From Stegostoma tigrinum (Eukaryota): a stretch of DNA of 64,000 nucleotides. The number at the start of each line of letters is the position of its first letter. Position 1 is the stretch's first letter. The stretch lies in the NCBI RefSeq assembly GCF_030684315.1, contig NC_081376.1, forward strand, positions 46,432,182-46,496,181, in the 5' to 3' direction. Positions 4,652 to 62,252 of this stretch are shown one piece after another. Under the pieces are notes generated by a model, which did no database searches, was not told where the DNA came from, and saw nothing but the letters and a program-made list of their open reading frames with translations. Position numbers and translations under genes: made by a program.

Positions 4652-4696
4652 GGGGCAAGGGAAGAAAGTGTCCACTTATTACGGCGTTTCTATAAG
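4652..4696 (+). CDS. CLEC16A: CLEC16A internal coding exon (GAREESVHLLRRFYK)
   Basis: Polypyrimidine tract ending ...ttctacag, then 45 nt, then gtgagg. The peptide matches vertebrate CLEC16A as I recall it (GAREESVHLVRHFYK). Phase 0/0. Confidence 0.9.
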
Positions 4697-6099: not shown

Positions 6100-6247
6100 A
6101 TAATGGGAACTGCAGATGCTGGATAATCCGAGACAACAAAGTGTGGAGCTGGATGAACACAACAGGCCAAGCAGCATCTTCGGACCACAAAAGCTTGCTC
6201 CTAAGATGCTGCTTGGTCTGCTGTGTTCATTCAGCTCCACACTTTAT
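6100..6247. mobile_element. Short palindromic PLE-derived element with ~15-bp TSD
   Basis: gtccaatgaactgag (6085-6099) and gtcccatgaactgag (6248-6262). Confidence 0.75.
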
Positions 6248-9034: not shown

Positions 9035-9503
9035 AGATACCGAAGTGTGGGGCTGGATGAACACAGGCCAAGCTTAGGAGCACAAAAGCTGATGCTTCGG
9101 GCCTAGACCCTTGACCAGAAAAGGGGGATGGGGAGAGGATTCTGAAATAAATAGGGAGAGGGGGAGGTGGACCAAAGATCAAGAGAGGAGAAGATAGGTA
9201 GGGAGAGAATAGGCCAATCTGGAGAGGATGGACAAGGGGACGAGCTGGGCTGGTTTTGGGATGCAGTGGGGGAAGGGGAGATTTTGAAGCTGGTGAAATC
9301 CACATTGATACCATTAGGCTGCAGGGTTCCCAAGCGGAATATGAGGTGCTGTTCCTGCAACCTTCGGGTGGCATCGTTGTGGTACTGCAGGAGGCCCAGG
9401 ATGGACATGTCTCAGGAATGGGAGGGAGAGTTGAAATGGTTCACGACTGGGAGGTGCAGTTGTTTGTTGTGAAACAAGCGTAGGTGTTCTGCAAAGCGGT
9501 CCA
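9035..9503 (-). mobile_element. PLE 3' fragment with end of GIY-YIG ORF
   Basis: ORF 9103..9408 (...HNDATRRLQEQHLIFRLGTLQPNGINVDF) is homologous to the 57.5-kb element. Confidence 0.85.
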
Positions 9504-9593
9504 AGAGTGACTTTGTTTTGTTATGATCCCAGTTGATGTTACCACTGGGCATGTCTGATCCTGTAATGAAATCTAGCTTGATAGATGCAACAT

Positions 9594-9903
9594 AGATAAT
9601 AGGAACTGCAGATGCTGGAGAATCCGAGATAACAAGGTGTAGAGCTGGATGAACACAGCAGGTCGAGCAGGAATGCTGACCTTCAAGGGCCTAGACCTTG
9701 TTATCTTGGATTCTCCAGCATCTGCCGTTCCTATTATCTCTGACACAATTTTAACCCCACTGCGAAGCCTCTTCTAAGGATGCCTACCCTGAAGAGGTTA
9801 CCCTCCTCCCTCCCCATTTCTGATGAAGGGTCTAGGCCTGAAACTTCACCCTTCCCGCTCTTATGATGTGCTTGACCTGCTGGGTTCATCCAGCTCTACA
9901 CCA
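9594..9903. mobile_element. Rearranged palindromic PLE-derived element with 15-bp TSD
   Basis: tgatagatgcaacat at 9579-9593 and 9904-9918; contains ctgatgaagggtctaggcctgaaac from 9820. Confidence 0.8.
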
Positions 9904-15237: not shown

Positions 15238-15418
15238 TGAGATAGTAGGAACTGCAGATGCTGGAGAATCTGAGATAACAAGGTGTCAAGCTGGATGAAC
15301 ACAGCAGGCCAAGCAGCATCAAAGGAGCTGAAGAAGGGTCTAGGCTTGAAAAATCAGCCTACCTGCCCTTTTGCTGCTTAGCCTGCTGTGTTCATCCAAC
15401 TCTACACCCTGTTATCTC
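15238..15418. mobile_element. Short palindromic PLE-derived element
   Basis: Tail plus the arm gctggatgaacacagcaggccaagcagc and its inverted partner gcctgctgtgttcatcc. Confidence 0.75.
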
Positions 15419-17534: not shown

Positions 17535-18124
17535 AGATAACCAGGTGTAGAGCTGGATGAACACAGCAGGCCAAGCAGCATCAGGAGCAGGAAAGCTAAC
17601 GTTTTGGGTCTAGATCTTTCTGCAGAAATGGGGGAGAGGAAGGGCATTCTGAAATAAATAGAGGAGGAGGCAGATGGAAGATCGATAAAGGAGGTTCAAA
17701 ATCTCCCCACCCCTGACCGCATCTCCAAACCAGCCCAGCTCGTCCCCCACCTCCCTAACATGTCTGTCCTTTCTCCCACCTATCTACTCCTCCCACCTCA
17801 ACCCCCACCCCCACCAGCCTCATCCCCGCCCCCGTGACCTTCCCTGGACTGACTAACCCCCGTCCTAACTACCCACCTACACTCACCTTTACTGGCTCCA
17901 TCTCCTCTCCACCTATCTGCTCCTTTTATCTATCCTTCATCCGCCTCCCCCCCACCCCCGGCCCTATTTATTTCAGAATCTCCTTCCTCTTCCCCATTTC
18001 TGAAGAAAGGTCTAGACCTGAAACGTCAGCTTTCTTTCTCTTCTGCTACTTGGCCTGCTGTGTTCATCCAACCGTACACCTTGCTATATCAGATTCTCCA
18101 GCATCTGCAGTTCCTGCTATCTCT
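17535..18124. mobile_element. Fold-back PLE-derived element with 14-bp TSD
   Basis: gcacataaaagcag (17521-17534) and gcatataaaagcag (18125-18138); inverted terminal segment plus C-rich 3' UTR. Confidence 0.8.
18000..18027 (+). ncRNA. Minimal hammerhead ribozyme core variant
   Basis: CUGAAGA-A-AGGUCUAGACCU-GAAACGUC: core intact, and stem II is a perfect palindrome. Confidence 0.55.
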
Positions 18125-18414: not shown

Positions 18415-18465
18415 GGGGAAGAAATTTTCCTTGATATGTTTGAAGATGAATATCGAGCCATGATG
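18415..18465 (+). CDS. CLEC16A: CLEC16A internal coding exon (GEEIFLDMFEDEYRAMM)
   Basis: Acceptor ttttatccttag and donor gtacgt; 51 nt, in frame with the neighbouring exons; recognisable CLEC16A motif GEEIFLDMFEDEY. Confidence 0.95.
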
Positions 18466-18869
18466 GTACGTGATCATCAGAGTAGGGTCATTTTCCAGTT
18501 CAACTCAAGTAGTTTGCTCAGTATACCCTAAATTCTATAATTATGTATTTGCACAGCTTGAACTTAGAAAATCACTTATGTGCTTTCTTAGTGAATTGAT
18601 ACAAGCTTTATGTTTAAGAAATATACAATAATTCATGTGTGTGTTAGGGTACTCTTTTCTTAAAGATGACCATTAGTCAAATGTGTTGCAAGACTGTAGC
18701 CCTAGAATTGCACAAGAACAGAGATTTGAAGTAGATCCTTTTATCAGCCTTCGTACCTTGTTGAAAAATCTAATCATTGTTTTTCAAAGGTGCAAAGAAG
18801 TCTTTAATTGAAAGTATTTGGAGCATCAGTAGTTATTCCTTTAACCAAAGTACATAATGAAAAAGATTT

Positions 18870-21367: not shown

Positions 21368-21554
21368 TTATCGAGCTGGTTCGTTGTTGTTCCAAAGATG
21401 TTTCATTACCCTACTGGGTAACATCATCAGTGCAGCCTCTGATGTTACCCAGCAGGGTAATTAAATGTCTGTGGAACAGCAACAGTCCAGCTCGGCGAGC
21501 CAACCAAGCTCAACCTCCACAACCCAAGCTACAAACCTAGCCCAAAACCTTAGA
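21368..21554. mobile_element. Short palindromic element, second hammerhead-bearing family
   Basis: Inverted arms ttaccctactgggtaacatca and tgatgttacccagcagggtaa; TSD-like gacccactagg (21357-21367) and gacgcactagg (21555-21565). Confidence 0.65.
21397..21430 (-). ncRNA. Hammerhead-like core of a second element family
   Basis: Reverse complement reads CUGAUGA-U-GUUACCC(AGUA)GGGUAAU-GAAA-CA-UC, with a 7-bp stem II. Confidence 0.55.
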
Positions 21555-22118: not shown

Positions 22119-22247
22119 AGCAAACCTCTAAATGTAGAGTACCTGATGATGGATGCATCTATTCTGCTACCTCCTACTGGCACCCCACTAACTGGTATAG
22201 ATTTTGTGAAAAGGCTACCTTGTGGCGATGTGGAGAGAACAAGGCGG
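22119..22247 (+). CDS. CLEC16A: CLEC16A internal coding exon (SKPLNVEYLMMDASILLPPTGTPLTGIDFVKRLPCGDVERTRR)
   Basis: Acceptor tttcccag and donor gtaagc; 129 nt, open frame; near-identical to the CLEC16A peptide. Confidence 0.96.
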
Positions 22248-23854
22248 GTAAGCACAGAATACAGTTGGTAGACTGAACAGTCGAACAACTTGTCTATTCA
22301 GTTTATCTTGACTGCAAGCACTCAACACTTCAAAAGAATAATAAACTCAGTTTGCAATAAGAAGTCTTTCACAATCTTTCAATGTAAATTTCCTCAAGTA
22401 AAGTTAAGTTTTAATTGGGGAGATTGTATTTTAAATGAACAGTACAAGATACTTGGTGAAATTGTTATAACTGTTATGGGAAAGGTCCAGGCAAAGTCAA
22501 ACCCCACTACTCCTCAAGCTGTACTGAAAGTGTAACTGTCTTGTTTAATCACCCAAATGGTTGTCTCAGCTCTCCTTATGGCTATTATCTAGAACAAACT
22601 ATACTTGCCCCAGGTTTCTTCAGTAAACTCAAATAACTTGAATATTAAGAACAAATGTATTCTTCAGGGAAATGGCAAATAGGTTATTAAATAAATTACT
22701 ATGTGGGCTTAAACAATGTCCCCTTAATCCGCATGCATTTGTACACATAAGTCACACAGCCCTGCTGTGATGTACGGATGTGACAAAAAGGCAAAAACGG
22801 AGCATCACTTTTGTAGGTAAAGGATTCAAATTCAGAAGATAGAAGGGGTTGACTTATCAGAATTTCTTTTGAAATCTGACTGTTGACAGTTGTTAAATGA
22901 TGGAGATCTTCAGATCATGTCTCCGATTCGGATGGCAAATGGGAAACACTTGAAACTTTCAATACTCTTTCTTCTAAACTACTTCAGTGACAGAGCTTTT
23001 CAGCCCATTTTTCACCAATTATTTTTCCCTAACTGCCTTTCCTTGCAAGCCTCTACGCCACTGCAACATCTAGGTGTTCCTTAAAATAAATCAACTCTAG
23101 AGGCTGCTGCTAGGCAACTTTTAAGCATGAATCTAAGGGTTTTTTCCAACCTGTTGCAAATATTAAATAAGTGGTCAGAGTTGGCTTTGCTGAAATTGAG
23201 TCCAAGAAGCTTCTAACAGTTAATGGTTCATTTCCTGTAATACTCCTGAAGTTGCCCTATATAATTTCATTGCCTGAACTTGCACACTTATTTGGATAGA
23301 TTGAGTGGAGCACCTGAATGGTGCTGTAAGATGACTATACTTGAGGGTTTGTTTGTGCATCAGCTGTATTTTTCAACAGTGTATGTATTGTTTCAACCAA
23401 ACATTAATCAGTTCACAACTGCATCGAAATCGAGGGTGTACAACGATTTTAGCTCCCTTGGTAAGTCACTTGAGACATTTTCTTGCCCAGCCATTTGCTG
23501 GAAGATGAATCATTCATCATAAGAACGTGTACCACAGGAGCATTGTAGAACAAAGTTTGACACCTAGATAATATGGCTAAATGTTAGGCCAATGAATGCT
23601 GGCTTTGTCAGTAATGCCCACATCCATACTTAAATAACAGAACAAATCACTGTTACAATATAGGTCAATACAGTAGCCAGTACACCCTAAACATGAGCTG
23701 GATTGAGATAATGACTCAAATTTGCTTTTTTTTTAAAAAAAGTTTATTGATGAATAAATGTTGTCATAGACTTGGCAATCGTTCTAATTTTCCTTGAATT
23801 GCGACATGGGGTCTTTTATGTCCAAATAAATGGAGGTGATGGCCTAGTGATATT

Positions 23855-24170: not shown

Positions 24171-24299
24171 TTTATTGTGTTAGCGATCTCTGGAACAATG
24201 TGACGTTTCTTCTTTCTTCTTGTAATTTATTACATTAAGTGGATCTAATTTTAAAGCATCGTCAGTATTGAATTGAATTTTTATTTTGCTTTTGTTAAG

Positions 24300-24420
24300 G
24301 CTATCAGGGTTTTCTTTATGCTCCGTTCTTTGTCGCTGCAACTACAAGGTGAGCCAGAAACACAGCTACCACTGACGAGGGACGAGGATCTTATTAAAAC
24401 AGATGATGTGTTAGATCTGA
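24300..24420 (+). CDS. CLEC16A: CLEC16A internal coding exon (AIRVFFMLRSLSLQLQGEPETQLPLTRDEDLIKTDDVLDL)
   Basis: Acceptor ttttgttaag and donor gtaagt; 121 nt ending in phase 1. Confidence 0.96.
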
Positions 24421-26914
24421 GTAAGTATTAAATAGGCTGCTGGTGCTGCTTTTGTATCTCTCAATGGTTATTGAGGGCTGCATTCTTTTTCATTTTAGAA
24501 TTTCTTTGAAAGAGGAGCATTGCAGTTCATGAGCCATGTGAATCTTAATTTCTCGATTTATTGGAAAGTATCCATGTATTTTGTGAAGTTGCACTGTTTT
24601 GTTATACAATATGTACAGGAGAATGTATTGACTATTGACTCCTTAAAGCTGTTATGGTGTAAACCACAGTTAAGAATCTGTGGTAATGACTCTCGGGAAT
24701 AACTGATGCTTAAAATTTCGCCGCTTTAACGTCATGTCTACTTCAAATGTAATGGCTGAAATTATCTTTGTGGCATTTTTTGCTGTAAAGGAATCTATTC
24801 AATATCTTATTTTAAAGTTCACTCAATTATTTATTGTAGGTTTAAGTTACTGAACAAGCTTGGTTGCTTTCAAGGTGGGACTAAGGAAATGCTAAAAGCA
24901 AAATAATATGACTAACTTGGCATCATGGCTATGGTGGTCATGTTGCCTGGGGTTTAGATCTGGGCAGCGAGTGAAAGCCAGAAGGGGTCAGGTGGTGGAA
25001 TGATTTGACAGCAGGGATGGTTGAAATTAGATGGCCATCAAGGTTAGGGTAGTTGCTGCCATTGGGGTTCTGGGTTTTGAATCGAGGTTCCTGGCCATGG
25101 AGACAATAGTCACATTAATTTGGATCCGAGACACATGTTGCAGAAACTCGAGGGGATGTTGCAGAATCCAACAACAGGTGGCACAGAACAAGGGAGTCAA
25201 GATGAGTGAGCGTTGGTGAATGATGGAAGTTCAGACTTAATGTGCGTTCAACCTTGATTGGTATTGATGCTAAAATTCTTGATGTTTATAGTTTGCCAAT
25301 ACCAGCTTCCAAGGACTTGAGTTCCTGCCATTTATGTTCATTGGTTACTGAGTATGTCTTGAAGGAATAACACCTAAAGTCACGTGCATACAATGCATGT
25401 TTGCTGAATTAATTTCCTTCTCAAGTTTGATTTGGTTTTATGAGATTTGTGGCATTTTATCCTCTTCAAAGTATTCTTGAAGTTTAACCAACTTTTAAAA
25501 GAATCACATCTGTCACTGTATTCATAACCAAACTTTGTGTTACTATTGTTAACCACTGTTTTTAATTACTCCTGTTTATAATAGAATAGGCGGGGCATAT
25601 TGATATTTGAATTAGTTAAGTGTTATCTTTTTCTGTTACCACTTGTACTGTTGAATTTTTAACTTCCCATTTATAATATTTGATAGCTGGATTCATACCA
25701 GTGCATTCTTTGCCAGCAACTGGGGGGTAAAAGGAATAAATTTAGAAATATTAATTAATGTGAAGAAAGTAGATGTCCAGCTTCTGTAGGATAATCTTCA
25801 TTTCTTTATGGAATGCTCTACATAAAACATGTGGGACAAATAATATGTGTTGTTGGTATCTTAAAGTTATGCTGATTTGTTTTACTGTTGTATATTTGAT
25901 TGGTTTGCTCTACTGAAGAAACCTAATCCTCAAGCAAAGTTTTGTTGGACAATGTTCCAGGGCCTGTGAAAACAGTGGCCCAGTACCAATGATGATCAAC
26001 ATGTTGATGATTCAGACTAATCCATCAAGCTGCTGTGCTGGCAATTCAATGAGTGGATTGGTGCTGACTTTTGGCCTTTGTGCTATTATTGAGGTCTGTG
26101 CCCATGATATAAACCTACTGTTGTCTTTCTGCTAAGCTCCATGTTTTTGGTTCCTGCTATCACCAGCTTTCATGTTTCCCATCTTGTATACCTATCACTT
26201 CTATCTCTTCCCACACAAGTCGTGTCTAGGTCTTTGATTACTGATTTCTCTCTTTGCACTGCTTTTAGCCTCATTTTGAAGCATATTTTACACTTATGAA
26301 AATGAAGAACTTACAAGAACTTTGGAGGGAAGGAAAGAAAATGGAATAATCTGGTTTTGTTCCTTCTGACTCTTCTTGCAATCCTAAACGTCCTGGGATT
26401 ATATGAATGAAATAGCTATACTTGTTTCTAAGAAATTTTAGAAGCCCCTCAAGGAGAGGTGAATTTTTGATTTGTGAATTTTTTTTATATATAAAGGTGG
26501 GCTAGAACAAACCTTTTAGCTTGTTTCCTGCTCCAGGATACTATTTAATGTTTTATTCAAACAATTCAAAAATACTGTAGCAAAATGAGAAACTTTTTCG
26601 TTGTAAGTTTAAGTTTGAGTAGGTGCTTTTAGTTTTATGATATTAGTCAGGTGTTCCACATGTTCGTTCTTGACATTGGTGTGGGGCATGGTATTGTGCA
26701 TTATAGTGGTTTTCCAGTCTACTTCACCAGCTTTACGGTAAATGACTCAACCACACTACAGTTCAGATAAGAAAGTGGGATGGCTTAACTTGAAATTTTC
26801 TGTGTTGTGGTATTTGGCTTTTTGGTCAGTGGCTAATGGTGTTAAGTGTCTTTTCCAAGTAGCACGTAATAGTCATGAGAGAACAACTGTATTTAATTCA
26901 TTTTAAAAGATTTA

Positions 26915-28833: not shown

Positions 28834-28935
28834 AGATAACACTGTGTGAAGCTGGATGAACAGAACAGGCCAAGCAGCATCAGAGGAGCAGGAAAGCTTG
28901 ATGTTTCAGGTCGAGACCCTTCCTCAGAAAATCTT
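28834..28935 (-). mobile_element. PLE terminal fragment
   Basis: gctggatgaacagaacaggccaagcagcatc...gacccttcctcag, flanked on both sides by acaatcttgaa. Confidence 0.7.
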
Positions 28936-30194: not shown

Positions 30195-31508
30195 CCATTG
30201 TTTGTGATATACCTAAATGATTTGGAGAAAGGTATAGGTGGTCTGATTAGCAAGTTTGCAGATGACACTAAGATTGGTGGAGTAGCAGATAGTGAAGGGG
30301 ACTGTCGGAGAATGCAGCAGAATGTAGATCGATTGGAGAGTTTGGCAGATAGAGGTCAGTCTGGGCAAATGCGAGGTGATGCATTGTGGAAGGTCAAATT
30401 CAAGAGTGAACTATACAGTAAATGGAAAGGTCCTGGGGAAAATTGATGTACAGGGAGATCAGGGTTTTCAGGTCCATTGTTCCCTGAAGGTGGCATCGCC
30501 GGTCAGTAGAGTGGTCAAGAAGGCATATGGCCTGCTTTCCTTCATCGGACCGGGTATTGAGTACGAGAGTTGGCAGGCCATGTTACAGTTGTATAAGACT
30601 TTAGTTCGACCACATTTAGAGTACTATGTACAGTTCTGGTTGCCACATTACCAAAAGGATGTGGATGCTTTGGAGAGGGTGCAGAGGAGGTTCACCAGGA
30701 TGTTGCCTGGTATGGAGGGTGCTAGCTATGAAGAAAGGTTGAGTAGATTAGGATTATTTTCATTAGAAAGATGGAGATTGAGGGGATGACCTGATTGAGG
30801 TCTACAAAATAATGAGGGATATAGACAAGGTGGATAGCAAAAAGCTTTTTCCCCCAGAGTGGGGGACTCAATTACTCGGGGTCATGAGTTCAAAGTGAGA
30901 GGAAGAAAGTTTATGGGAGATATGCGTGGAAAGTTCTTTACGCAGAGGGTGGTGGGTGCCTGGAACGCGTTTCCAGTGGAGGTGGTGGACAGACACGATA
31001 GTGTCTTTTAAGATGTATCTGGACAGGTACATGGATGGGCAGGGAGCAAAGGGCTACAGACCCTTTGAAAATAGATGACAGGTTTAGACAAAGGATCTCA
31101 CCCCGCACCGTGCCGTGGGGTGGCACGGTGGCTCAGTGGTTAGCACTGCAGCTTCACAGCGCCAGGGACCAGGGTTCAATTCCAGCCCCGGCGACTGTCT
31201 GTGCAGAGTTTGCACATTCTCCCCGTGTCTGCGTGGGTTTCCTCCGGGTGCTCCGGTTTTCTCCCACAGTCCAAAGATGTGCAGGCTAGCTGGATTGGCC
31301 ATGCTAAAATGCACATAGTGTTCAGGAGTGTGTGGGTTATAGGGGGATGAGCCTGGTTGGGATGCTGCATGGGGCGGTGTGGACTTGTTGGGCCGAAGGA
31401 CCTGTTTCCACGCCGTGGGGAATCTAATCTAATCTAATCTAATCTCGATTGGTGCAGGCTTCGAGAGGCGAAGGGCCTGTTCGTGTGCTGTAGTTTTCTT
31501 TGTTCTTT
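30195..31508 (+). mobile_element. CR1-like LINE 3' portion (RT C-terminus and UTR)
   Basis: LFVIYLNDL...SKFADDTKIGG; LYKTLVRPHLEYYVQFWLPHYQKDVDALERVQRRFTRMLPG; tail ttttctttgttcttt. Confidence 0.9.
31118..31445 (+). mobile_element. Full-length HE1-like V-SINE inserted in CR1 3' UTR
   Basis: Pol III A/B boxes (tggctcagtgg; ggttcaattcc), V-domain gtttgcacattctccccgtgtctgcgtgggtttcctccgggtgctccgg, and (aatct)n tail. Confidence 0.9.
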
Positions 31509-40837: not shown

Positions 40838-41743
40838 CCATATATGCTCATATAAAAGTCGAACTTTTTAGGCTATTTTTTAAGGTTAAATTTATGGGGT
40901 CAGCTATAACATGAGATACTACTTTGAGGAGCTGAAATTCAGGGCTACAGGGGAACTGAGCTCAGTTGAGCAGCACCCAAAGGGAGTTTATCACTGGACT
41001 CGCACCTGATTAAACTTTTGTGCCAAGTTCTTCCATTTCCTTCTATTTTCTCTCGTCTACTTCTATTTTATTTTTTAAATTAATGTTTTAAGATTTTATT
41101 TCTGATAATTCTTTTTATCAGACATTTGATTCCCATACTGTCTTAACAATCATTGTAGCCGAGAGAAATTGTCAACATCTGGACGTCCATCCAATCGAAT
41201 CCCACGTGAAGAAATATGGTAATTATAATGAAGCAAATGCATGTAAGCCTATCTTATATAGGAAATAATGGCATAATAAACTTTGTGTCGCACTAATTAT
41301 ATTGCTCATTCGATAATGAACTTAAGAAATCTGTAGCCTAACGTTGGTGTGAATTGTACATCAAAACATATAATAGCACGAGATAATAGGAACTGCCGAT
41401 GCTGGAGAATCTGAGATAACACCGAGCTGGATGAACACAGCAGAAGCAGGCTTCTTCAGAAAGGAGGGCCTAGACCCAAAGCATCAGCTTTCCTGCTCCT
41501 CTGATGCTGCTTGGCCTCCTGTACACCTTGCTATCTCACATAATAGCACAAATAAAGTTTATTTCCTCATTGTAACATTTATGTACAGGATAATACCTTG
41601 ACTCTCAAATGTTGATCTGTTATCTGTGAAGAATTAGGGTCAACTTTTACATGAGGCATTTGGAAAATTTTCTGTTTTTGTTTGGCCAAAAATAGGGGAT
41701 TGACTTTCATGAGATTGACTGACTTTTATTCGAGTATGTATAG
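40838..41743. mobile_element. Non-autonomous Tc1/mariner (Tigger/pogo-like) DNA transposon remnant
   Basis: Left ta|ccatatatgctcatataaaagtcga and right tgacttttattcgagtatgtatag are decayed inverted termini resembling CCGTATATACTCGAGTATAAGTCGA; subterminal repeats of gtcaacttttacatgag type. Confidence 0.65.
41380..41539. mobile_element. Short palindromic PLE-derived element nested in DNA transposon, 10-bp TSD
   Basis: ataatagcac at 41370-41379 and 41540-41549. Confidence 0.75.
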
Positions 41744-43659: not shown

Positions 43660-44330
43660 GTAATTTCTGCCTATCTGCTCTTTTATCCATCTTCCATTCG
43701 CTTCACCATCTCTCTCTCTCTCTCTTTATTTCAGAATCCCCTGCCCCTCCCCCATTTCTGGAGAAGGGTCCAGACCCAAAATTGTATCAGAGATAATAGG
43801 AACTGCACGTGCTGGAGAATCCAAGATAACAGGGTGTGGAGCTGGATGAACACAGCAGGCCAAGCAGCATCTTAGAAGCAGGAAAGCTGACGTTTCAGGC
43901 CTAGACCCTTCATAAGAAATGGGGAAGGAGAAGAGGGTTCTGAAATAAATAAGAAGAGGGGGAAATCAAAGATGGATAGAGGATAGGTGGAGAGGAGACA
44001 GACAAGTTAAAGAGGCGAGAATACCTACTAACCTCATCCTGCCCTCGTGACCTGTCTGTCCTCCCTGGACTGACCTATCTCCTCCCTACTTCCCCACCTA
44101 CACTCATCTTTACTGGCTCCATCCCTGCTTCTTTAACTTGTCTGTCTCCGCTCCACCTATCTTCTCTTCTATCCATCTTCAATCCACCTTCCCCCCCCCT
44201 CTCCCTATTTATTTCAGAACCCTCTTACCCTCCCCCATTTCTGATGAAGGGTCTAGGCCCGAAACCTCAGCTTTCCTGCTCCTCTGCTGCTTGGTCTGCT
44301 ATGTTCAAGTAGCTCTACACTTTGTTATCC
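43660..44330. mobile_element. Cluster of PLE-derived fragments and fold-back
   Basis: Inverted arms at about 43820-44015 and 44120-44330; ctgatgaagggtctaggcccgaaacctc at 44241-44268. Confidence 0.75.
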
Positions 44331-44697
44331 TAGTTTCCTACTGTTGTGTTAAGCTTCTCCATTCTTATTTTTGTTTCATACTTTGCCTTATTGCTTTTGT
44401 TTGACATTGTTCACTTCCATTCCCAATATTATTCTTCACCATTCCCTCTGAAGCGTCTGTGATGTTTATTTAACTTCATCTCTTCTGAATGCGTTTAAGG
44501 TCACATTTACTTGCGTTGATTTTTCCTTGCCATATTTTTATCCTGCACACTTAATGGAATGTTTTATAGCTCACCTTATTACATAATTCATTGCATGATG
44601 TGGTAACTTAGATTGAAAATGTTATCTGTCTTTGGGATTGTAAACCAATTACAACTAAATGAATTGCAAACGAAATGACCTTATCAGTTTCTTTTGT

Positions 44698-44909
44698 ATC
44701 AGAGATAATGGGAACTGCAGATGCTGGAGAATCTGAGATAACAAAGTGTGAAGCTGGATGAACACAGCAGGCCAAGCAGCATCTCAGGAGCACAAAAGCT
44801 GAAGTTTCAGGCCTAGACCCAGATGAAGGATCTAGGCCTGAAACGTCAGCTTTTGTGCTCCTGAGATGCTGCTTGGCCTGCTGTGTTCATCCAGCTTCAC
44901 ACTTTATTA
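44698..44909. mobile_element. Young near-perfect palindromic PLE-derived element
   Basis: Arms of about 75 bp around gacccagatgaaggatctagg; flanked by ttatcagtttctt(t)tgt at 44681-44697 and 44907-44922. Confidence 0.85.
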
Positions 44910-48229: not shown

Positions 48230-50130
48230 GAAGTCACATGACACCAGCTTATAGTCCTACAGGTTTATTTGAAACCATAAGGATTTAAGTGTTCCTCCTT
48301 TTGTTGGTGAAGTGAAGAGAAGCTCACAGGCACAGAATTTATGGGCAGAGAGATCAAAAGATCATACAAATGGTGTGAGTGGAGTGTCGACAGGCTGACT
48401 AAGTCTTTGTAGGTGATCAAAAGTGTCAGATGGTCTGAGTAAACCATCAATAGCTGAATAGCAAGTGAAGAGATGACCGATAATTTGTTTGCAGCCGAGA
48501 TAATTACAAAAAATTTTAAAATAAGATGGTGCTGGAGACAAACCAAATGGCTGGAATAACATGATAGGTGTAAGAGTCGCATGCTGAGAGTCTATTCAAA
48601 GTAACAAGTAATCCAAAACTATACAAACTAATTATGGTAGAGAGGTCATAACTTGTTATCAAGGTAATGGTGTCAAAACAGGACAGTGAGGAGGATTTTA
48701 CAAATACAGAACAGTATAGTGGGGTTACACGTAGTGCAACGGGAACCCAAGATCACGCTTGAGACCATCTTCATGGATACAGAAATTGGCTATCAGTTTC
48801 TGCTCAGCAATTCTGTGTTGTCTGTCTCGAAGGCTGCCTTGGGGAACGCTTACCCAAAGATCGGAGGCTGAATATCCTTGACAGCTGAAGTGTTCCCTGA
48901 CTGGGAGGGAATATCCCTGTCAGACTATTGTTGGGCACTGTCCATTCATCCGTTGTTCTAGGTCTGACCAATATACCATGCCAAAGGGAATCCTTGCCTG
49001 CAGCGTGTGAGGTAGATAACATTGGCTGAGTCACATGAGTATCTGCCTTGTACGTGGTGGGTGGTGTCATGGTAGTATCCATGCCGATGAGTTGACATGG
49101 CTTGCAGAGGTTACCGTGGCAGGGTTGTGTGGTGTTGCGGTCATGTTGTCCTGAAGGCTAGATAGTTCGCTGCAAGTGATGGCTCTGCTTAAAGTTTGGC
49201 GGTTGTTTGAAGGTGAGAAGTGGAGGTGTAGGGATAATCTTGGTGAGATGTCCACATCATTGATGACATGTTGAAGGCTGCGAAGAACATGGTGTAGTTT
49301 CTTCTCTCTGTGGAAGTGCTGGACGACAAAGGGTACTGTCTTGGTCACATCCTTTGCCTATTGAGGAGGCCGTTGCAATTTTTTTACTGTGGCACATCAC
49401 AATCGGGGATCAATGAGTTAAGCACTGTATCCCATTCTTATGAGGGTGTCTTTCAGCATCTTTAGGTGTCCATTGCTTTCCTCACCGTCTGAACAGATTC
49501 TCTATATGTGCAGGTCTTGTCTGTAGGGATGGCTACTTTTAACATGTTTAGGGTGGAAACTAGAAAAGTGCTGCATTGTGACGTTATCCAGCGGCTTGTG
49601 GTAGAGTGAGGTACTGAGGTGTCCGGTAATTAATTTAATTCTGAAGAGTAGTCCATGGTAAGTCTGATAATGGGATGAAATTTGTTGATATTGTTGTGTA
49701 GTCATTTTAGTGATTCCTCACCGTAATTACTGAGGAAGAACATGTTGATGTATCTGGTCTACAGTGTTAATTGGGGGTCCTGTGCAGCAAAGAAGTGTTG
49801 CTCAAACTTGTGCATAAAAATATAGGAATATTGGGGTGCAAATTTGATCCCTATGGCTGTTTTATGTACCTGGATGAAGAACTGGTTTCCGAAGGTGAAG
49901 TAGTTGTGTTTGGGGTTGAACTGAATGAGTTGTTGGGTGGCGTCTGGAAATTGGCAGTTGTTGGTGTTGAGTACTGATGCTGTTGTGGGGGTTGCTGGTG
50001 TACAGTGCCAAAACGGCCTTTGTGATGAGGAGTGTTCCTGGTTCAACTGATCCATGGGTGCTGAATTTCAGTAAGACGTCTGTAGTGTCATGACAGAAAC
50101 TGGGGTGGGGGGGTGTGGTTCCTTGTACAC
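48230..50130 (-). mobile_element. Degenerate Penelope-like element of a different family (RT remnants)
   Basis: Minus-strand ORF pieces: NYFTFGNQFFIQVHKTAIGIKFAPQYSYIFM (PLE RT GxAMGxxxAPxYAxIFM-like), LSTSLYHKPLDN...FSSFHPKHVK (thumb), VPFVVQHF, and a Cys-rich linker. Many stops and frameshifts. Confidence 0.8.
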
Positions 50131-51613
50131 TGATGGGCCAAAGGCTACCACCTGTGCAGCACTTCTGTGATTCTGTAATTCTTTCAGTTTAGCATGCTGT
50201 AATTATGGCTAATGATGCCTTCTGTATATTGGAGTGACCAAACATTTGTTCTGTTCTGTCCTCGAGCATTGCCTTGAGTTTCTGGTTGCTTGTCCTTTTA
50301 AATTCTCCCTTCCTCCCATGCTGACCTTTCTTATTCTGTCCCACCTATTGGTGAAACTTCACATGAGCTCAAGGAACAGCATCTTTCAACTTAACGTTGA
50401 CAGCTTTCTAGACCTAACATTGATTCCAACAGCTTCAGATCATAACCTCCACATCCATAATCTTGCTTATGTTTTGCTGGATGAGTCTTCATCTTATATA
50501 TTTTTTTTCTTTCCCTTCATATTGTATTTAGATGGATTTTGTGTAACAATTTCCATCTCGTTTGGATGTAATTTTTGTTTCTTCACTGTGCCCAATACCA
50601 CTCATTTTGGCTGTTGTATCACAAAATCTTATGTTATTTAATCTTAAGATCCAAGTCTCCTCAATGTCTCAGATCTTTGGTCGTCTTGCCACCTTCCTCT
50701 TCTACGTCCTCAAAAAGACTCCAACACTTAGTTTCTTTTCAGTTCTAATAACTAGTCATTGACCTGAAATGTTAATTCTGTTTTTCTCCATAGATGCTGC
50801 TTGACCTGCTGAGTTTTTCCAGTCCTTTTTTTTTTGCTCTTATTTCAGAGTTCCAGCATCTGAGGTACTTCACTTTTTGTATGAAGCTGGTTATTCAGGC
50901 CTCCGAGGGTCAGTAAATAAATTAAATATTGATACTCCCCATTGCACCCTGACTAAAAACACTACTGATCTGTTAATAGTATGAAATTAATCTGGCCTGA
51001 AACTGTTAATCCCATAACAAGTAATTTGTGCCAAATTGACTGTGTCCCTAAGGCATGCAGACCAAAAAAAAGTCAGGAGTTGCATTCCTGACTATCAATG
51101 ACAGCTGACGAGTGTGCTTGTGTATGTGAATCATACCATGAACATCTGGTTGAATCGACAGAGACACAACTGTTTAGGCTCAGATCGTGAAGCAGAAGGC
51201 TGTTCTATATAGCTCATTATACTTCACGAATTGCATTGTTATGAAGACATTATGCAAAATATTAATTAATGTTGCTATTGACTGTCCTGAACTTTTTTAA
51301 AAGAATGTGTTCTAAAGTAAAGGGCACTGACTAGAGTAAAAATGTTACATTTGCACAGGTCACAGGTTTGGAGAGAGGTCACACGGCATGGTTTGTGTGT
51401 GTGTAAAATATATTGGTTTTTGAATGCACAATTTGCCATGGGGTGACAGGTTTTGTCCCCAGTCTTGAATTCTCTGAAACCCCTCTAATTAAAATTTGAT
51501 AGTTGACAACATGGACTGCAGTTGGCAGCTTTCCAAAGGAGAAGTCAGATTCTACTGCTTCCAGAGAGAGAAAACCATGCCAACTGTAACTGATCCAGGA
51601 AGAAATCCCAGTG

Positions 51614-51736
51614 CTAAGAAGGATCTAGGCACGAAATGTCAGCCTTCCTGCCCCTCTGACACTGGCCTGCTGCGTTCATGCAGCTGTACACCTTGTTATC
51701 TCAGATTCTCCAGCATCTGCAGTTCCTACTATCTCT
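51614..51736 (+). mobile_element. PLE terminal fragment
   Basis: aagaaggatctaggcacgaaatgtcagc...cagattctccagcatctgcagttcctactatctc, flanked by gaaatccca. Confidence 0.7.
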
Positions 51737-52334: not shown

Positions 52335-53782
52335 TTCACTAACTGGTGAGCTATCGGAAAAGTGGAGGTTGTCTAACATGGCGTCACTAATTAAGGAAGG
52401 TGGTAAGGAAAAGCCGGGGAACTGTAGACTGATGAGCTTAACGTCAGTGGTGGGCATGTTGTTGAAGGGAATCCTAAGGGACAGGATTTACATTTATTTG
52501 GAAAGGCAAGGACTAATTTAGGGATAGTCAACATGACTTTGTGCATGGGAAACCTTGTCTCACAAACTTGGTTGAGTCTTTTGAAGAAGTAACGAAGAGG
52601 ATTGAGGGAAGATGGTGGACATGATCCATGTGGACTTCCTTAAGGCATTTGACAAGATTCCTCATGGTGGACTGGTTAGCAAGGTGAGATCACATGGAAT
52701 ACAGGGAGAACTAACCATTTGGATACAGAACTGGCACAAAGGTAAAAGATACCAGGTGGCACTCTGCTTTCAGACGGGAGGCCTGTGACCAGCGGTGTGC
52801 CTCAAGGATCGGTGTTGGGTCCACTGCTTTTCATCATGTCATATAAATGATTTGGATGTGAACATAGGAGGAATGGTTAGTAAGTTTGCAGATGACATTA
52901 AATTGGCAGTGTGGTGGACAGTAAAGGACGTTCTCTCAGTGCAACAAGATCTTGATCAGGTGAGCCTATGGGCTCAGGAGTGGCAGGTGGCGTTTAATTT
53001 AGATAAATGTGAGGCGTTGCATTTTGGAAAGGCAAATCTGCGCAGGATTTATACACTTAACAGTAAGGTCCTTGAAAGTGTTGCTGAACAAAGACACCTC
53101 GGAGTCCAGGTTCATCGTTCCTTGAAAGTGGAGTCACAGGTAGATAGGAAAATGAAAAAAGCATTTGGTACGCTTGCCTTTATTAGTCAATGCATTGAGT
53201 ATAGAAGTTGGGAGGTCATGTGGCTATATGGGACATTGGCTAGGCCGCTTTTTGAATACTGTGTGTGATTCTGGTCTCCCTGCTATAGGAAGGATGATGT
53301 TAAACTTGAAAGGTTCAGAAAAGATTTACAAGGATGTTGCCAGGGTTGTAGGGCTTGAGCTATAGGGAGAAGGTGAATAGCCTGGGCCTATTTTCCCTGG
53401 AGCATCGTAGACTGAGGGGTGATATTAGAGAGGTTCATAAAATCTTGGGGGGGCTTGGATAGGGTAAATAGACAAAGTCTTTTCCCCAGGGTGAGGCAGT
53501 CCAAAACTAGAGGCCGTAGGTTTAAGGTGAGAGGGGAAAGTTTAAAAAGGACCCAAGGGCAACTTTTTCATGCAGAGGTGGTGTGCGTATGGAATAAGTT
53601 GCCAGAGGAAGTGGTGGAGGCTGGTACAATTATAACATTTATAAGGCATTGGATAGGCATTGAATACAAAGGGTTTAGAGGTATATGGGCCAAATGCTGG
53701 CAAATGGTACTAGATTTATCTAGGAGAACTTGTTGGCTTGTGTGATTTCGACCAAAGGGTCTGTCCCCGTGCTGTACATCTC
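52335..53782 (+). mobile_element. CR1-like LINE RT region to 3' end
   Basis: KPGNCRLMSLTSVVG; HINDLDVNIGGMVSKFADDIK; tail tctatgactcta. Confidence 0.88.
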
Positions 53783-53960
53783 TATGACTCTATAACTGAA
53801 CTGGAAAGGTAACCTGTACTGGAATATATTAAAAGCAATTAATTTTCATATTTTTGTTTGTCATTGTTAAGATAACCAATGATATTTTGAAACCTCTTTA
53901 ATTTCTACTCACTTATGTAAACTAATCAAGTGAGATACACTGTTAATTCTATTCTTTCAG

Positions 53961-54112
53961 ACAACAGCGACTTAATTGCTTGCACTGTAGTAACTAAAGA
54001 TGGCAATCAGATGCATCGATTCCTGGCTGTAGACGTTTATCAGATGAGTTTGGTTGAACCAGAGAGCAAACGACTTGGCTGGGGAGTGGTGAAATTTGCA
54101 GGCTTGCTTCAG
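53961..54112 (+). CDS. CLEC16A: CLEC16A internal coding exon (NNSDLIACTVVTKDGNQMHRFLAVDVYQMSLVEPESKRLGWGVVKFAGLLQ)
   Basis: Acceptor attctttcag and donor gtaaga; 152 nt. The first 2 nt complete the phase-1 codon (A+AC = Asn) from the previous exon. Lies within ORF 53930..54124. Confidence 0.96.
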
Positions 54113-54349: not shown

Positions 54350-55232
54350 AGGGAGTAGAGTTGCAAGTAGACAGGATAGTGAAGGTGGTGTTTGATATGT
54401 TTGCATTTATTGATCAGTGCATTGAGTATAGAAGTTGGGAGGTCATATTACAGGTGTACAGGACATTGGTTCGACCACTTTTGGAATACTGTGCAATTCT
54501 GGTCTCCCTGCTATAGATATGATGTTGTGAAACTTGAAAGGGTTCAGAAAAGATTTACAAGAATGCAGCCAGGGTTGGAGAGTTCAAACTGCAGGGAGAG
54601 GCTGGGTAGACTGGGTAAAAACTGAAAGACTTGCAGGTGCTGTAAATCAGAAACTAAGTAGAAATTGCTGGAAAAGCTCAGCAGTTCTGGCAGCATCTGT
54701 GGAGAGATATCAGATTTAACATTTTGGGTAGAGTGGCCCTTCCTCAGAACTGTTAACTCGGATGTCTTTCCGCAGATCATCTGAGCTTTTCCAGCAATTT
54801 CTATTTTTGTCTCTGAAAAGGCTGGGGCTATCTTTCCTGGAGTGTTTAGAGGCTGAGGAAAAGTTTTATTATAGAAAAGTTTACAAAATCATGAGGGGCA
54901 TAGATTGGGTGAATAGCCAAGGTGTTTTCGCCAGGGTAGTGAGGTCCACAACTAGAATGCATAGGTTTAAGGTGACAGGGAAAAGATTTAAAAGGGACCG
55001 AAGGGGCAGCAGTTTTATGCAGAGGGTGGTGTGTGTATGGAATGAGGTGCCAGAGGAAATGATGGAGTCTGGTATAATTACAAGATTTAAAAGGCATCTG
55101 GATGGGTATACAAGTAGGAAAGGTTTGGACGGATATGGGCTAAGTGCTGGCAAATGGGACTAGATTGATTTGGGATATCTGTTTGGCATGGATTGGTTGG
55201 ACCGAAAGGGTCTGTCTCCATGCTGTATGACT
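54350..55232 (+). mobile_element. CR1-like LINE 3' fragment, interrupted by a palindromic element
   Basis: QFWSPCYRYDVVKLERVQKRFTRM; FMQRVVCVWNEVPEE...FKRHLDGY. Confidence 0.85.
54618..54815. mobile_element. Palindromic element of a third PLE-like family inserted in CR1
   Basis: Arms agaaattgctggaaaagctcag and ctgagcttttccagcaatttct. Related sequences occur at about 12835-13306, 41860-41945, 50740-50880 and 61262-61345. Confidence 0.6.
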
Positions 55233-56048: not shown

Positions 56049-56253
56049 GACATGCAGGTGATGGGGGTGGAAGATGACAGTAGAGCTTTAAACATCATCA
56101 TTCATAAGCCTGCATCTAACCCTCATGCCAGGCCCTTCCCTATCCTCCAGGCTACATTCATCTTTGCTGATCACATCCGCTGCATCATTGCAAAACAGCG
56201 ATTAGCAAAGGGCCGTATTCAAGCACGACGTATGAAGATGCAAAGAATAGCAG
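56049..56253 (+). CDS. CLEC16A: CLEC16A internal coding exon (DMQVMGVEDDSRALNIIIHKP...RLAKGRIQARRMKMQRIA)
   Basis: Acceptor tttgaacag and donor gtaatt; 205 nt; within ORF 56025..56285; matches the conserved CLEC16A C-terminal region. Confidence 0.96.
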
Positions 56254-56896: not shown

Positions 56897-57235
56897 AATA
56901 GGATCTACATTACAAAAACTTCTGGGGAGCACCTAGCTTTGGGTGTCTACCACAATGTCCTACTTCTCATAACATAGCCACAGTGGGTGGTTATTTTCTT
57001 TCCAAATACAAATACTTGCCAAACTGCCCATTTAGCTCAGTGACTGGGAATTGTTAACACAATGATACGTTGCATTGTTTTGAAACAGTGGAATGAAAAA
57101 TATGCAATAAGTACAAAAGCATCTAAACTGAGAAGAGAGATAATGGGAACTGCAGATGCTGGAGATTCCAAGATAATAAAATGTGAGGCTGGATGAACAC
57201 AGCAGGCCAAGCAGCATCTCAGGAGCACAAAAGCT

Positions 57236-57263
57236 GACGTTTCAGGCCTAGACCCTTCATCAG
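57236..57263 (-). ncRNA. Minimal hammerhead ribozyme core (copy on the element's own sense strand)
   Basis: Reverse complement reads ctgatgaagggtctaggcctgaaacgtc; stem II is closed by a G-U pair. Confidence 0.6.
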
Positions 57264-57482
57264 AGAGGGGGATGGGGGGAGGGAACTGGAATAAATAGGG
57301 AGAGAGGGGGAGGCGGACCGAAGATGGAGAGTAGATAGGTGGAGAGAGTGTAGGTGGGGAGGTAGGGAGGGGATAGGTCAGTCCAGGGAAGACGGACAGG
57401 TCAAGGAGGTGGGATGAGGTTAGTAGGTAGCTGGGGGTGCGGCTTGGGGTGGGAGGAAGGGATGGGTGAGAGGAAGAACCGG

Positions 57483-58352
57483 TTAGGGAGGCAGAGACAG
57501 GTTGGCCTGGGTTTGGGATGCAGTGGGTGGGGGGGAAGAGCTGGGCTGGTTGTGTGGTGCAGTGGGGGGAGGGGATGAACTGGGCTGGTTCAGGGATGCA
57601 GTAGGGGAAGGGGAGATTTTGAAACTGGTGAAGTCCACATTGATACCATATGGCTGCAGGGTTCCCAGGCGGAATATGAGTTGCTGTTCCTGCAACCTTC
57701 GGGTGGCATCATTGTGGCAGTGCAGGAGGCCCATGATGGACATGTCATCAAGAGAATGGGAGGGGGAGTGGAAATGGTTTGCGACTGGGAGGTGCAGTTG
57801 TTTGTTGCGAACTGAGCGGAGGTGTTCTGCAAAGCGGTCCCCAAGCCTCCGCTTGGTTTCCCCAATGTAGAGGAAGCCGCACCGGGTACAGTGGATGCAG
57901 TATACCACATTGGCAGATGTGCAGGTGAACCTCTGCTTAATGTGGAATATCATCTTGGGGCCTGGGATGGGGGTGAGGGAGGAGGTGTGGGGACAAGTGT
58001 AGCATTTCCTGCGGTTGCAGGGGAAGGTGCCGGGTGTGGTGGGGTTGGAGGGCAGTGTGGAGCGAACAAGGGAGTCACGGAGAGAGTGGTCTCTCCGGAA
58101 AGCAGACAGGGAAGGGGATGGAAAAATGTCTTGGGTGGTGGGGTCGGATTGTAAATGGCGGAAGTGTCGGAGGATAATGCGTTGTATCCGGAGGTTGGTA
58201 GGGTGGTGTGTGAGAACGAGGGGGATCCTCTTGGGGCGGTTGTGGCGGGGGCGGGGTGTGAGGGATGTGTCGTGGGAAATGCGGGAGACGCGGTCAAGGG
58301 CGTTCTCGATCACCGTGGGGGGAAAGTTGCGGTCCTTAAAGAACTTGGACAT
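57483..58352 (-). pseudogene. Penelope-like RT-thumb/GIY-YIG endonuclease ORF fragment (289 aa)
   Basis: From the ORF track: VVY...YIG motif with Cys/His zinc ligands. The RT core is missing and there is an in-frame TAA just upstream. Confidence 0.85.
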
Positions 58353-58494
58353 CTGGGATGTGCGGGAGTGGAATGTCTTATCGTGGGAGCAGATGCGGCG
58401 GAGGCGGAGGAATTGGGAATAGGGGATGGAATTTTAGCAGGAGGGTGGGTGGGAGGAGGTGTATTCTAGGTGGCTGTGGGAGTCAGTGGGCTTG

Positions 58495-59049
58495 ACACCC
58501 GGCACCTTCCCCTGCAACCGCAGGAAATGCTACACTTGTCCCCACACCTCCTCCCTCACCCCCATCCCAGGCCCCAAGATGACATTCCACATTAAGCAGA
58601 GGTTCACCTGCACATCTGCCAATGTGGTATACTGCATCCACTGTACCCGGTGCGGCTTCCTCTACATTGGGGAAACCAAGCGGAGGCTTGGGGACCGCTT
58701 TGCAGAACACCTCCGCTCAGTTCGCAACAAACAACTGCACCTCCCAGTCGCAAACCATTTCCACTCCCCCTCCCATTCTCTTGATGACATGTCCATCATG
58801 GGCCTCCTGCACTGCCACAATGATGCCACCCGAAGGTTGCAGGAACAGCAACTCATATTCCGCCTGGGAACCCTGCAGCCATATGGTATCAATGTGGACT
58901 TCACCAGTTTCAAAATCTCCCCTTCCCCTACTGCATCCCTAAACCAGCCCAGTTCATCCCCTCCCCCCACTGCACCACACAACCAGCCCAGCTCTTCCCC
59001 CCCACCCACTGCATCCCAAAACCAGTCCAACCTGTCTCTGCCTCCCTAA
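58495..59049 (+). pseudogene. Inverted duplicate of the GIY-YIG endonuclease coding segment
   Basis: ORF 58459..59049 is nearly identical to the C-terminal part of 57483..58352 (e.g. KMTFH vs KMIFH). Confidence 0.85.
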
Positions 59050-59273
59050 CCGGTTCTTCCTCTCACCCATCCCTTCCTCCCACCCCAAGCCGCACCCCCA
59101 GCTACCTACTAACCTCATCCCACCTCCTTGACCTGTCCGTCTTCCCTGGACTGACCTATCCCCTCCCTACCTCCCCACCTACACTCTCTCCACCTATCTT
59201 CTTTACTCTCCATCTTCGGTCCGCCTCCCCCTCTCTCCCTATTTATTCCAGTTCCCTCCCCCCATCCCCCTCT

Positions 59274-59301
59274 CTGATGAAGGGTCTAGGCCCGAAACGT
59301 C
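59274..59301 (+). ncRNA. Minimal type I hammerhead ribozyme core in PLE terminal repeat
   Basis: CUGAUGA-A-GGG(UCUAGG)CCC-GAAA-CG-UC: conserved core, stem II, palindromic ACGU stem III, GUC cleavage triplet. Stem I is only about 2 bp locally. Confidence 0.7.
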
Positions 59302-59394
59302 AGCTTTTGTGCTCCTGAGATGCTGCTTGGCCTGCTGTGTTCATCCAGCCTCACATTTTATTAAACTGAGAAGATACTGCATATTATCTTACAA

Positions 59395-59603
59395 TAATAT
59401 GGTGTAGAGCTGGATGAACACAGCAGGCCAAGCCGCATCAGAGGAGCAGGAAAGCTGATGTTTTGGGTTGGGATCCTTCTTCAGAAAAATGGTCCTAATC
59501 CGAAACATCAGCTTTCCTGCTGCTCTGCTGCCTGGCCTGCTGTGTTCCTCCAGCTCCACACCTTGTTATCTCAGACTCCAGCATCTGCAATTCCTACTGT
59601 CTC
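59395..59603. mobile_element. Older palindromic PLE-derived element next to the large fold-back
   Basis: Arms ggtgtagagctggatgaacacagcaggcc and ggcctgctgtgttcctccagctccacacc, plus tail. Confidence 0.75.
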
Positions 59604-61261: not shown

Positions 61262-62252
61262 CATGCTGCCAGATCTCCTGAGCTTGTCCAGCAACTTCTG
61301 TTTTTGTTCCTGATTTGCAGCATCCGCAGTTCTTTCAGTTTTTATACAGAATTCCCCCTAGTCCTCTGCATCCAGTGTATCATTCTCTGCCACCTTCTAC
61401 CAATTACAATCTGACCCCACAACCAAAAAGATACTTCTCTCCCAACCCCAATCTGCCTTTTGTAAGGACTGCTCACTCCACGACTCCCTTGTCCACTCCA
61501 CACCCCCCCCCCCCCAAACACCCGACACCCTTCCGTGCAACCGCAGGAAGTGCCACATTTGCCTGTACATCTCTTCTGACCACCACCGCCCCTCCCCTCC
61601 AAAGTAAGGCTTTCATATCTGACAGGGGTTTCCCTGTACATCCACCAACTTGGTCTACTATATCCATTGCTCCCAGTATGGTCTCCTGCCCATTGGTGAG
61701 ACCAAGTGTAGACTCAGAGACCATTTTGTCGAGGACCTGCACTCTGTACGTGACAAATGACAACACTTACCAGTTGCCAACCATTTTAACTCCCCCTCCC
61801 ACTCCCTGGGTGACATATCCATCCTGGGCCACCTCTAGTGTCACAATGACACCGTTCATAAACTGGAGGAGCACATTCTGCCTTGGGAGCCTACATTCCA
61901 ATGACATCAATGCAGAATTCACCAGTTTCAAAATCTCCCCTCCCCCAGCCTCATCCCACGTCCAACCCTCCTTCATCCCTCCCTCCCTCATCCCTGCCTC
62001 CTTGACCTGCCACAGCCTGTCCATCTTCTCTCCCACTTATCCACCCCTTCCCACTGACTAATCCCAACCACTGTCTATCTGCATTCACCTATCACCAATC
62101 CACCTACCTTCCCAGCCCCACTCCTCCTCTCTATTTCCCAGCTCTCTTTTCCCTTCCCATTTCTGAAGAAGGGTCCCAACTCAAAACGTCAACTTTCCTG
62201 CATCTCTGCTGTCTGGCTTGCTGTGTTCCTCCAGTTCCACATTATTGTTTCA
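61262..62252 (+). mobile_element. Degenerate Penelope-like 3' fragment
   Basis: Frameshifted homology to the GIY-YIG region (ccttccgtgcaaccgcaggaagtgc; ...INAEFTSFKISPPP), C-rich UTR, and terminal ttctgaagaagggtcccaactcaaaacgtc. Confidence 0.8.

Follow-up and report, generated by a model that had tools for sequence, protein, structure and literature searches.

The window, i.e., the whole 64,000-nt stretch of Stegostoma tigrinum DNA that was analysed, lies within CLEC16A, since it holds six exons of this gene on the + strand (Pfam PF19439, E-value 3e-45), which correspond to amino acids 587–821 of the 1054-aa shark orthologue (Table 1). The hammerhead copies described below are intronic in CLEC16A, as the preliminary description had placed them, presumably including those outside the outermost exons identified. 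Introns of sharks have been reported before to contain Penelope-like repeats (whale shark preprint 10.1101/443036).

A young, 5′-truncated, inverted insertion composed of two head-to-head arms (57137–59361) was found in a CLEC16A intron. The arms agree at 858 of 863 aligned bases, with one 5-nt indel. A zinc-finger-like linker of the CX2-5CxxC type is present as CX4CxxC in both arms, the GIY-YIG domain (PF01541) scores 20–21 bits (cut-off 22.6, i.e., below threshold), the RT thumb of the − arm contains an in-frame stop at 58436–58434, and the insertion itself is without an RT core. The encoded piece shares 94% identity with a Stegostoma tigrinum protein and 61% with a Chiloscyllium one, and many of its 114 homologues carry RVT_1 and also GIY-YIG; these identities point to a carpet shark as host. 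With a C-terminal GIY-YIG, an inverted partner, a one-sided tail, and a target-site duplication (TSD), this is an EN+ Penelope-like element (PLE). The linker, the inverted partner, and the one-sided tail are marks of Neptune/Nematis-type PLEs (PMC8557442, PMC3846280), and the linker together with the host group suggests a Neptune-like Penelope. Positions within the element are given relative to C3 of the hammerhead core (C3 = 0), so that the predicted cut falls between +27 and +28 and A1.1 is +28.

Table 1. Coordinates of features in the window (positions of the 64,000-nt stretch; arm starts relative to C3)
Feature	Position	Strand	Remarks
CLEC16A coding exon, upstream of the motif	56049–56252	+	
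Other CLEC16A exons	4649–4696, 18415–18471, 22119–22250, 24297–24425, 53960–54112	+	
Left TSD, 13 nt	57124–57136	+	
− arm, tail-bearing	57137–58494	−	RT thumb, linker, GIY-YIG, hammerhead, tail
Tail, ~36 nt	57137–57173	−	on one arm only (arm comparison)
Twin hammerhead, antisense to host transcript	57236–57263	−	core intact, G10.1–U11.1 (CpG decay)
+ arm, without tail	58495–59361	+	linker (CX4CxxC), remnant of GIY-YIG, 3′ region rich in C/T, hammerhead and a further 60 nt
Minimal type I hammerhead core, C3 to C17	59274–59301	+	sequence match, structural descriptor
Right TSD, 13 nt	59362–59374	+	identical to left
Older short hairpin	59391–59602		arms start ~−3 and +6
Young short hairpin	44695–44907		13-nt TSD; arms start ~+2 and +8
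Short hairpin	5688–5901		arms start −1 and 0
Short hairpin	6100–6247		arm with tail begins at precisely A1.1 (+28, the predicted cut site), other at +36
Short hairpin	1061–1264		arms start ~−3 and +8
Short hairpin	3815–3986		6-nt microhomology; arms start +2 and ~+65
Three-piece insertion	9594–9903		ends −22, +78, +7
Short hairpin	15239–15420		no clear TSD; arms start 0 and +37
Short hairpin	41380–41536		internal deletions; arms start +3 and −2
Single arm	51615–51736	+	TSD; 5′ end +3
Single arm	28835–28932	−	TSD; 5′ end ~−4
Hammerhead copy	18000–18027	+	core and palindrome intact, A10.1–U11.1; in inverted insertion 17534–18123
Hammerhead copy	44241–44268	+	invariant core intact, palindrome broken (16.2 G>C)
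Hammerhead copy, older subfamily	62163–62190	+	G12>A; 3′ of decayed PLE ORF remnant 61395–61983
Second-family minimal hammerhead	21397–21430	−	7-bp stem II; apex of hairpin 21371–21554, arms start ~−6 and +4
Third-family minimal hammerhead, decayed	54718–54747	−	3-bp stem I; apex of hairpin 54647–54816, arms start −3 and ~+24

A profile search of the window returned 34 arms of the motif's family and a related family, 33 of which were aligned; two third-family arms were left out of the statistics. TSDs of 12–20 nt were present at 13 of 17 tested loci, and short copies at 11 of 17, most insertions being hairpins or single arms of 120–220 nt. None of the 34 arms forms part of head-to-tail units that each carry a complete ribozyme, and the partial tandem at 9594–9903 is without a second full core. 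About 60 nt of element sequence from past the tail (9741–9800) were captured in this partial tandem, which is consistent with reverse transcription starting inside the RNA; shorter traces of such sequence were seen at 43780–43790. Complementarity to the 59274 copy amounts to 76% in the left arm of the hairpin at 59391–59602. Near +43, a 3-nt indel recurs between the two arms of 43789–44336, 5688–5901, 59391–59602, and 15239–15420, and the arms of 43789–44336 differ at subfamily-type bases as well; arm differences within one locus would stem either from recurrent slippage or from two RNA templates per insertion event.

Two further hammerhead families in the window keep the core and the pairing with different stem sequences. 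The second, an unrelated PLE family (hairpin 21371–21554), has a perfect core and a long AC-rich tail, and the third (54647–54816 and 50759–50868) has a longer loop II and a decayed core. Further decayed PLE RT/endonuclease remnants lie at 49241–50104(−), 61395–61983(+), and 9250–9513(−). The frames 30328–30789 and 52789–53268 (+) are presumably CR1-type LINE RT remnants, judged by look; a weak RVT_1 match was obtained for 52789–53268 only.

Upstream of the hammerhead in the + arm, a 148-nt AG-free pyrimidine tract (59102–59251) with a branch-point-like TACTAAC at 59107–59113 is followed by an AG at −24, which is possibly the 3′ splice site of a pLTR intron and also a cryptic CLEC16A acceptor. 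The tract could be compositional; arm 9801 starts at −22, and in D. virilis a splice site lies 5 nt before the hammerhead. The inverted arms within 57137–59602 are expected to form ~860 bp of near-perfect double strand in CLEC16A pre-mRNA, likely a substrate for A-to-I editing or small-RNA production.

Hammerhead structure, decay, and the host transcript

The 28-nt motif was located by direct sequence match at 59274–59301(+), with letters exactly as first noted, and the core boxes, the linker, and the GIY-YIG remnant upstream bear out its identification as a type I hammerhead of the minimal kind, located in a shark PLE's terminal repeat. The boxes CUGAUGA, GAAA, and UC correspond to CUGANGA/GAAA/UH in type I order. 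One extra unpaired A stands between A9 and 10.1, stem II comprises 4 bp beginning with G10.1–C11.1 and closed by a CUAG loop, and the 3′ half of the core runs from G12 to A15.1 followed by C15.2, G16.2, U16.1, and C17. Stem I is formed by 59272–59273 with 59302–59303 (2 bp, U2.1–A1.1 and C2.2–G1.2), and stem III consists of an ACGU palindrome at 15.2–16.2, the monomer being without helix III; the ACGU stem III, the extra A, and the 2-bp stem I all agree with the preliminary description. Cleavage is predicted between 59301 and 59302. Across 16 copies, helix I pairing is retained in 87.5% of cells (U–A; C–G or U–G). The segment 59282–59293 of stem II is a 12-nt near-palindrome for which an intermolecular duplex is possible (−25 kcal/mol), i.e., another possible dimer interface.

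At up to 3 mismatches the 28-nt motif occurs seven times in the window versus 0 times in 100 shuffles, and a relaxed structural descriptor with 0 core mismatches returned seven distinct sites versus 0–1 in 10 Markov controls, six of the seven belonging to the motif's own family and one being 21430(−). The Rfam search for Hammerhead_1 that had been proposed as a check gave no hammerhead family among 18 matches to the window at E ≤ 1, as is expected for a minimal variant; the short hairpin insertions matched only miRNA-precursor models below threshold. Loose motif matches at 31644, 51105, 22987, 22397, 47684, and 3154 were judged to be chance. A 21-nt family pattern had 0 matches in viral contigs, and its occurrence in one metagenome contig was rejected as due to chance, since only 22 nt matched and nothing else of the element was alongside.

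All copies that had been listed before are present (57263−, 18000+, 44241+, 9820+, 2930−, 28927−, 62163+), most of them in a damaged state. Among the 17 arms in the window that span 0 to +27, the 11 invariant bases are kept in 8, these bases and the CG palindrome in 3, and G10.1–C11.1 as well in just 1, the copy at 59274; the 15.2–16.2 palindrome is lost in 44241, 9820, 28927, and 2930. A core no more conserved than its flanks across young genomic copies had been named in the preliminary description as a point against the ribozyme; non-CpG core positions were conserved in 206 of 224 cases versus 1467 of 1665 in the 3′ flank (p = 0.09), a comparison that is ill-posed because inserted copies decay neutrally. 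The four CpG positions were conserved in 67 of 98 cases. Contigs of sequencing run X1 (see below) show the same decay, the variants listed including G12>A at 11%, C15.2>T at 12%, and G16.2>A at 17% of summed depth, and C11.1 holds 77% of the depth. Covariation within the family did not exceed that in shuffles (one pair changed on both sides; 422 of 500 shuffles as high), nor was there any beyond shuffles for the rod fold described next. Such a pattern of decay is expected of dead copies derived from a functional master, and it neither proves nor refutes catalysis.

For the lone 59274 motif, a rod (CUGAUG/CGUCAG) is predicted at −11.4 kcal/mol versus −3.6 kcal/mol for the active-like monomer, with pair probabilities above 0.96, so that the doubt raised earlier about monomer activity appears justified; in the dimer, the inactive form is predicted at −38 versus −5.5 for the active one. 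Within the pre-mRNA, 35 of 36 bases across the motif are predicted to pair with the 99% antisense twin upstream, or alternatively the motif would pair with the inverted arm that follows 30 nt further on (z −14). In the preliminary description, cleavage of the CLEC16A intron by intact + strand copies was considered possible. Intact sense copies would then cut the pre-mRNA in cis, or as dimers formed with further intronic copies or with transcripts of the element, and affect the host gene, for which speak the intact sense copy at 59274 and the 11 invariant bases kept in five + strand copies (9820, 15328, 18000, 44241, 59274). Such cleavage is nevertheless very improbable, because of the rod fold, the inactive dimer, and the pairing with twin or neighbour, and because only 1 of 17 copies is complete, CpG decay being dominant, and that one is predicted to be buried in double-stranded RNA. 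In addition, the sense copies closest to it, at distances of 2.9 kb and 15 kb, carry damage, the insertion is young and without a sign of selection, and monomers were inactive in PMC4209133. The intronic copies are likely inert relics, whereas the motif itself is real and correctly named.

Ends and junctions at the ribozyme

The 5′ ends of 31 arms from 17 loci were curated by hand to within some bases, with approximate values for long arms; for the young − arm, −1170 was used in place of the true end near −1230, with no effect on the clustering test. Nearly half of the arms (15 of 31) have their 5′ end between −6 and +9. None ends within +10 to +27, three lie at +28, +36, and +37, and one falls between −22 and −7. 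Among the 26 arms reaching +9, 15 stop within 16 nt, i.e., 5% per nt versus 0.3% per nt elsewhere (binomial p = 6e-14). The −6 to +9 interval was chosen after the data had been seen, and paired arms are not independent; p is 1e-12 when the choice of interval is allowed for, and per locus the count is 10 of 16 (p = 2e-7). Every hairpin junction in the window is different, and the short hairpins of the two unrelated PLE families also have arm starts around the ribozyme (Table 1). Truncated copies thus mostly start at the upstream edge of the ribozyme and a few start exactly at the predicted cut site, which is the unusual part of this element and is absent from the preliminary description. The literature search returned no report of PLE hammerheads as sites where 5′ ends cluster and none on shark PLE hammerheads, Repbase and Dfam being outside its scope.

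Breakpoints were surveyed by aligning contigs of four out of 22 sequencing runs (X1, X5, X9, X14) to 56950–57510; three bisulfite runs were set aside, since converted reads would fail to align to such a C/G-rich region. X1, for which 194,825 contigs aligned, may be the source sample, with breakpoints from other loci, and is undercounted; X5 comes from another sample and study, and both X5 and X14 were excluded as expression evidence, their type being uncertain. Since a subfamily difference at −2 causes ends at −1 to −4 to collapse on 57264, some longer copies may be clipped there. Among the loose ends listed for X1, the largest is the tail-less 3′ end at 57171 (930 contigs), and the top 5′ end is −1 (57264; 823 contigs, median of 255 unaligned letters, flank agreement 0.37). 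The X5 loose ends listed include −1 (26 contigs) and +5 (15 contigs), while 57264 is absent among the six matches listed for each of X9 and X14. Tandem joints, among those listed, restart at +5 (12 contigs), −2, and −4.

At the predicted cut site, 4 of 11 X1 filler junctions among the matches listed start at 57235 (= A1.1). In two of these the filler is the natural tail continuation, so the downstream unit starts exactly at A1.1. One further joint (4 contigs) begins at C17, and one arm in the window, 6195(−), begins at A1.1 (n = 1). Among the six X1 loose ends listed 57235 is absent, and a 57235 loose end in X14 (17 contigs) was rejected as a truncation, since it continues as ribozyme sequence and so represents an indel variant. 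The best reading of these junctions is that cleaved RNA starting at A1.1 was probably copied into DNA on occasion; RT stalling at the foot of the rod would also yield ends around +28 to +30.

Comparison with known elements and alternative explanations

The 59274 motif is another instance of the class of minimal PLE hammerheads defined by the same features in PMC4209133 (Cervera and de la Pena 2014), where monomers were inactive and dimers weak. The metazoan motifs described there share the core, the base between 9 and 10.1, G10.1–C11.1, the palindromic 15.2–16.2, and the absence of loop 3, as well as a place downstream of RT-EN within the 3′ repeat, the dispersal of truncated copies, and pairs on opposite strands 100–700 bp apart; closest in design is the Acropora digitifera Neptune motif (Fig. 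S3 therein). With its 2-bp stem I, the shark motif lies at the short end of that set, which includes other 2-bp cases (e.g., D. virilis, Culex, Oikopleura), and it differs in the near-palindromic stem II. Cartilaginous fish are absent among the 56 motifs in the supplement excerpts, and the excerpts of that paper make no mention of 5′ ends that cluster at the motif. In PAc (Poseidon of Anolis carolinensis; Frangieh 2024, PMC11167929), cleavage needs the element protein. The main template there is uncleaved RNA, extension takes place on both target strands, and the hammerhead lies upstream of two RT start sites whose spacing equals the tail, three features presumably shared by the shark element. 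The CX2-5CxxC linker (Neptune/Nematis type), in contrast, is a feature of the shark element, the ATG in its core opens 13 codons only, and some of its genomic junctions start at the cut site, whereas no PAc RNA reads end there in the excerpts of that report.

EN+ PLEs (Craig 2021, PMC8557442; Arkhipova 2013, PMC3846280) likewise show 5′ truncation, an inverted 5′-truncated partner, TSDs, a one-sided tail of 30–40 nt, and palindromes at inverted junctions, whereas most insertions here are 120–220-nt hairpins or single arms ending at the ribozyme. Non-LTR retrozymes (Li 2026, preprint 10.64898/2026.07.22.740005; PMC7761336), for which one chondrichthyan case is given, are similarly short, non-coding, pLTR-derived, and hammerhead-bearing. 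They form head-to-tail arrays with a complete ribozyme per unit, in contrast to the head-to-head pairs or single arms seen here, whose core is often incomplete, and by the head-to-tail arrangement the shark motif is not a non-LTR retrozyme.

The reading that we favour, with a rough probability of 0.72, is that of a minimal type I hammerhead in a Neptune-like pseudo-LTR that acts in the element's own RNP, where most templates stay uncleaved and the ribozyme edge forms a boundary. Hammerhead action would likely be confined to this RNA–protein particle. By analogy with PAc, cleavage would be slow and aided by a second copy and by the element protein. The element RT may start at two sites ~90 and ~125 nt downstream of C3, as suggested by the two 3′ ends observed and again in line with PAc, and reverse transcription would be primed at nicks in the two target strands, so that the arms come to lie head to head inside one target duplication. 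Uncleaved RNA would be the usual template, and copying would often end at the 5′ edge of the ribozyme, be it an RNA end, an exonuclease stop, or a protein or structure boundary. A few bases may be lost when the arms join, and cleaved RNA starting at A1.1 would be copied now and then. More tentatively, and on balance doubtful, the folded or protein-bound 5′ edge may set the template end across several unrelated families, yielding many ribozyme-capped hairpins along with some cDNAs that start at the scissile bond.

The short copies (11 of 17 loci) are plentiful enough to suggest a non-autonomous, SINE- or MITE-like derivative, amplified from a single short master or a small number of them whose transcription begins immediately 5′ of the core; the 5′ clustering would then be inherited. 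The highest summed depth lies downstream of the core in all four runs, which fits such an origin, depth not being a copy number. It is nevertheless unlikely, given that every hairpin junction in the window differs, that the hairpins each have their own TSD, that short arms bear variants of several subfamilies, and that the same boundary recurs in two unrelated families; a linear short master RNA would merge with the reading of the edge as an RNA end. Stalling of the RT on the rod hairpin (0 to +29), with +28 as its 3′ foot and −6 to +9 as the zone of drop-off or fold-back, would dispense with cleavage altogether and is of a similarly low likelihood. The rod is the predicted fold and +28 sits 2 bp inside its foot, but cDNA hairpins are weak (−1.4 to −6.6 kcal/mol), U7 and G16.2 of the rod do not pair in 12 of the 16 copies, ends are missing from +10 to +27 in the window, and the joints listed include +28 and neither +29 nor +30. 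Moreover, the tail-less arm is longer at its 5′ side in most hairpins and the reverse holds in others, which a single folded-back cDNA cannot produce; as either arm may be longer and the cDNA hairpins are weak, single-cDNA fold-back was rejected as the hairpin source.

That the motif is non-catalytic, a hammerhead that has degenerated and is retained for protein binding or as a structural part of PLE RNA, would agree with the 2-bp stem I, the rod fold, the mostly uncleaved templates, and the Naiad PLEs that thrive without a hammerhead (PMC8557442). We regard it as improbable, because most copies of the family carry the catalytic base at every catalytic position and these bases are kept across three families, cleavage of the anole motif in the presence of protein, with C3/G8 rescue, is documented (PMC11167929), and junctions were found at A1.1. 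Long palindromes are unstable, and long inverted insertions such as 57137–59361 exist, so that short hairpins might arise through post-insertion deletion of palindrome middles, or through selection against long intronic inserts. Deletion is contradicted by the single arms with TSDs (51615, 28835) and, among the loose ends listed, the 823 X1 contigs with unrelated flanks, all of which share the boundary, and selection would spread the ends over the whole downstream part, whereas +10 to +27 is empty; we give this origin hardly any credence.

Implications for shark Penelope-like elements

The motif adds sharks to the published list of minimal PLE hammerheads and tells little about CLEC16A, the idea of host-intron cleavage being improbable. 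If the proposed copying of cleaved RNA is true, cDNA starts at the scissile bond would provide, for the first time, an in vivo trace of a minimal PLE hammerhead cutting its RNA, and shark Penelope insertions would constitute a fossil record of minimal hammerhead action in the germ line. Should 5′ ends peak genome-wide at the ribozyme edge and at the cut site, both the occurrence and the timing of cleavage in retrotransposition would become testable from DNA, and such a test based on DNA alone would be applicable to any PLE-rich genome.
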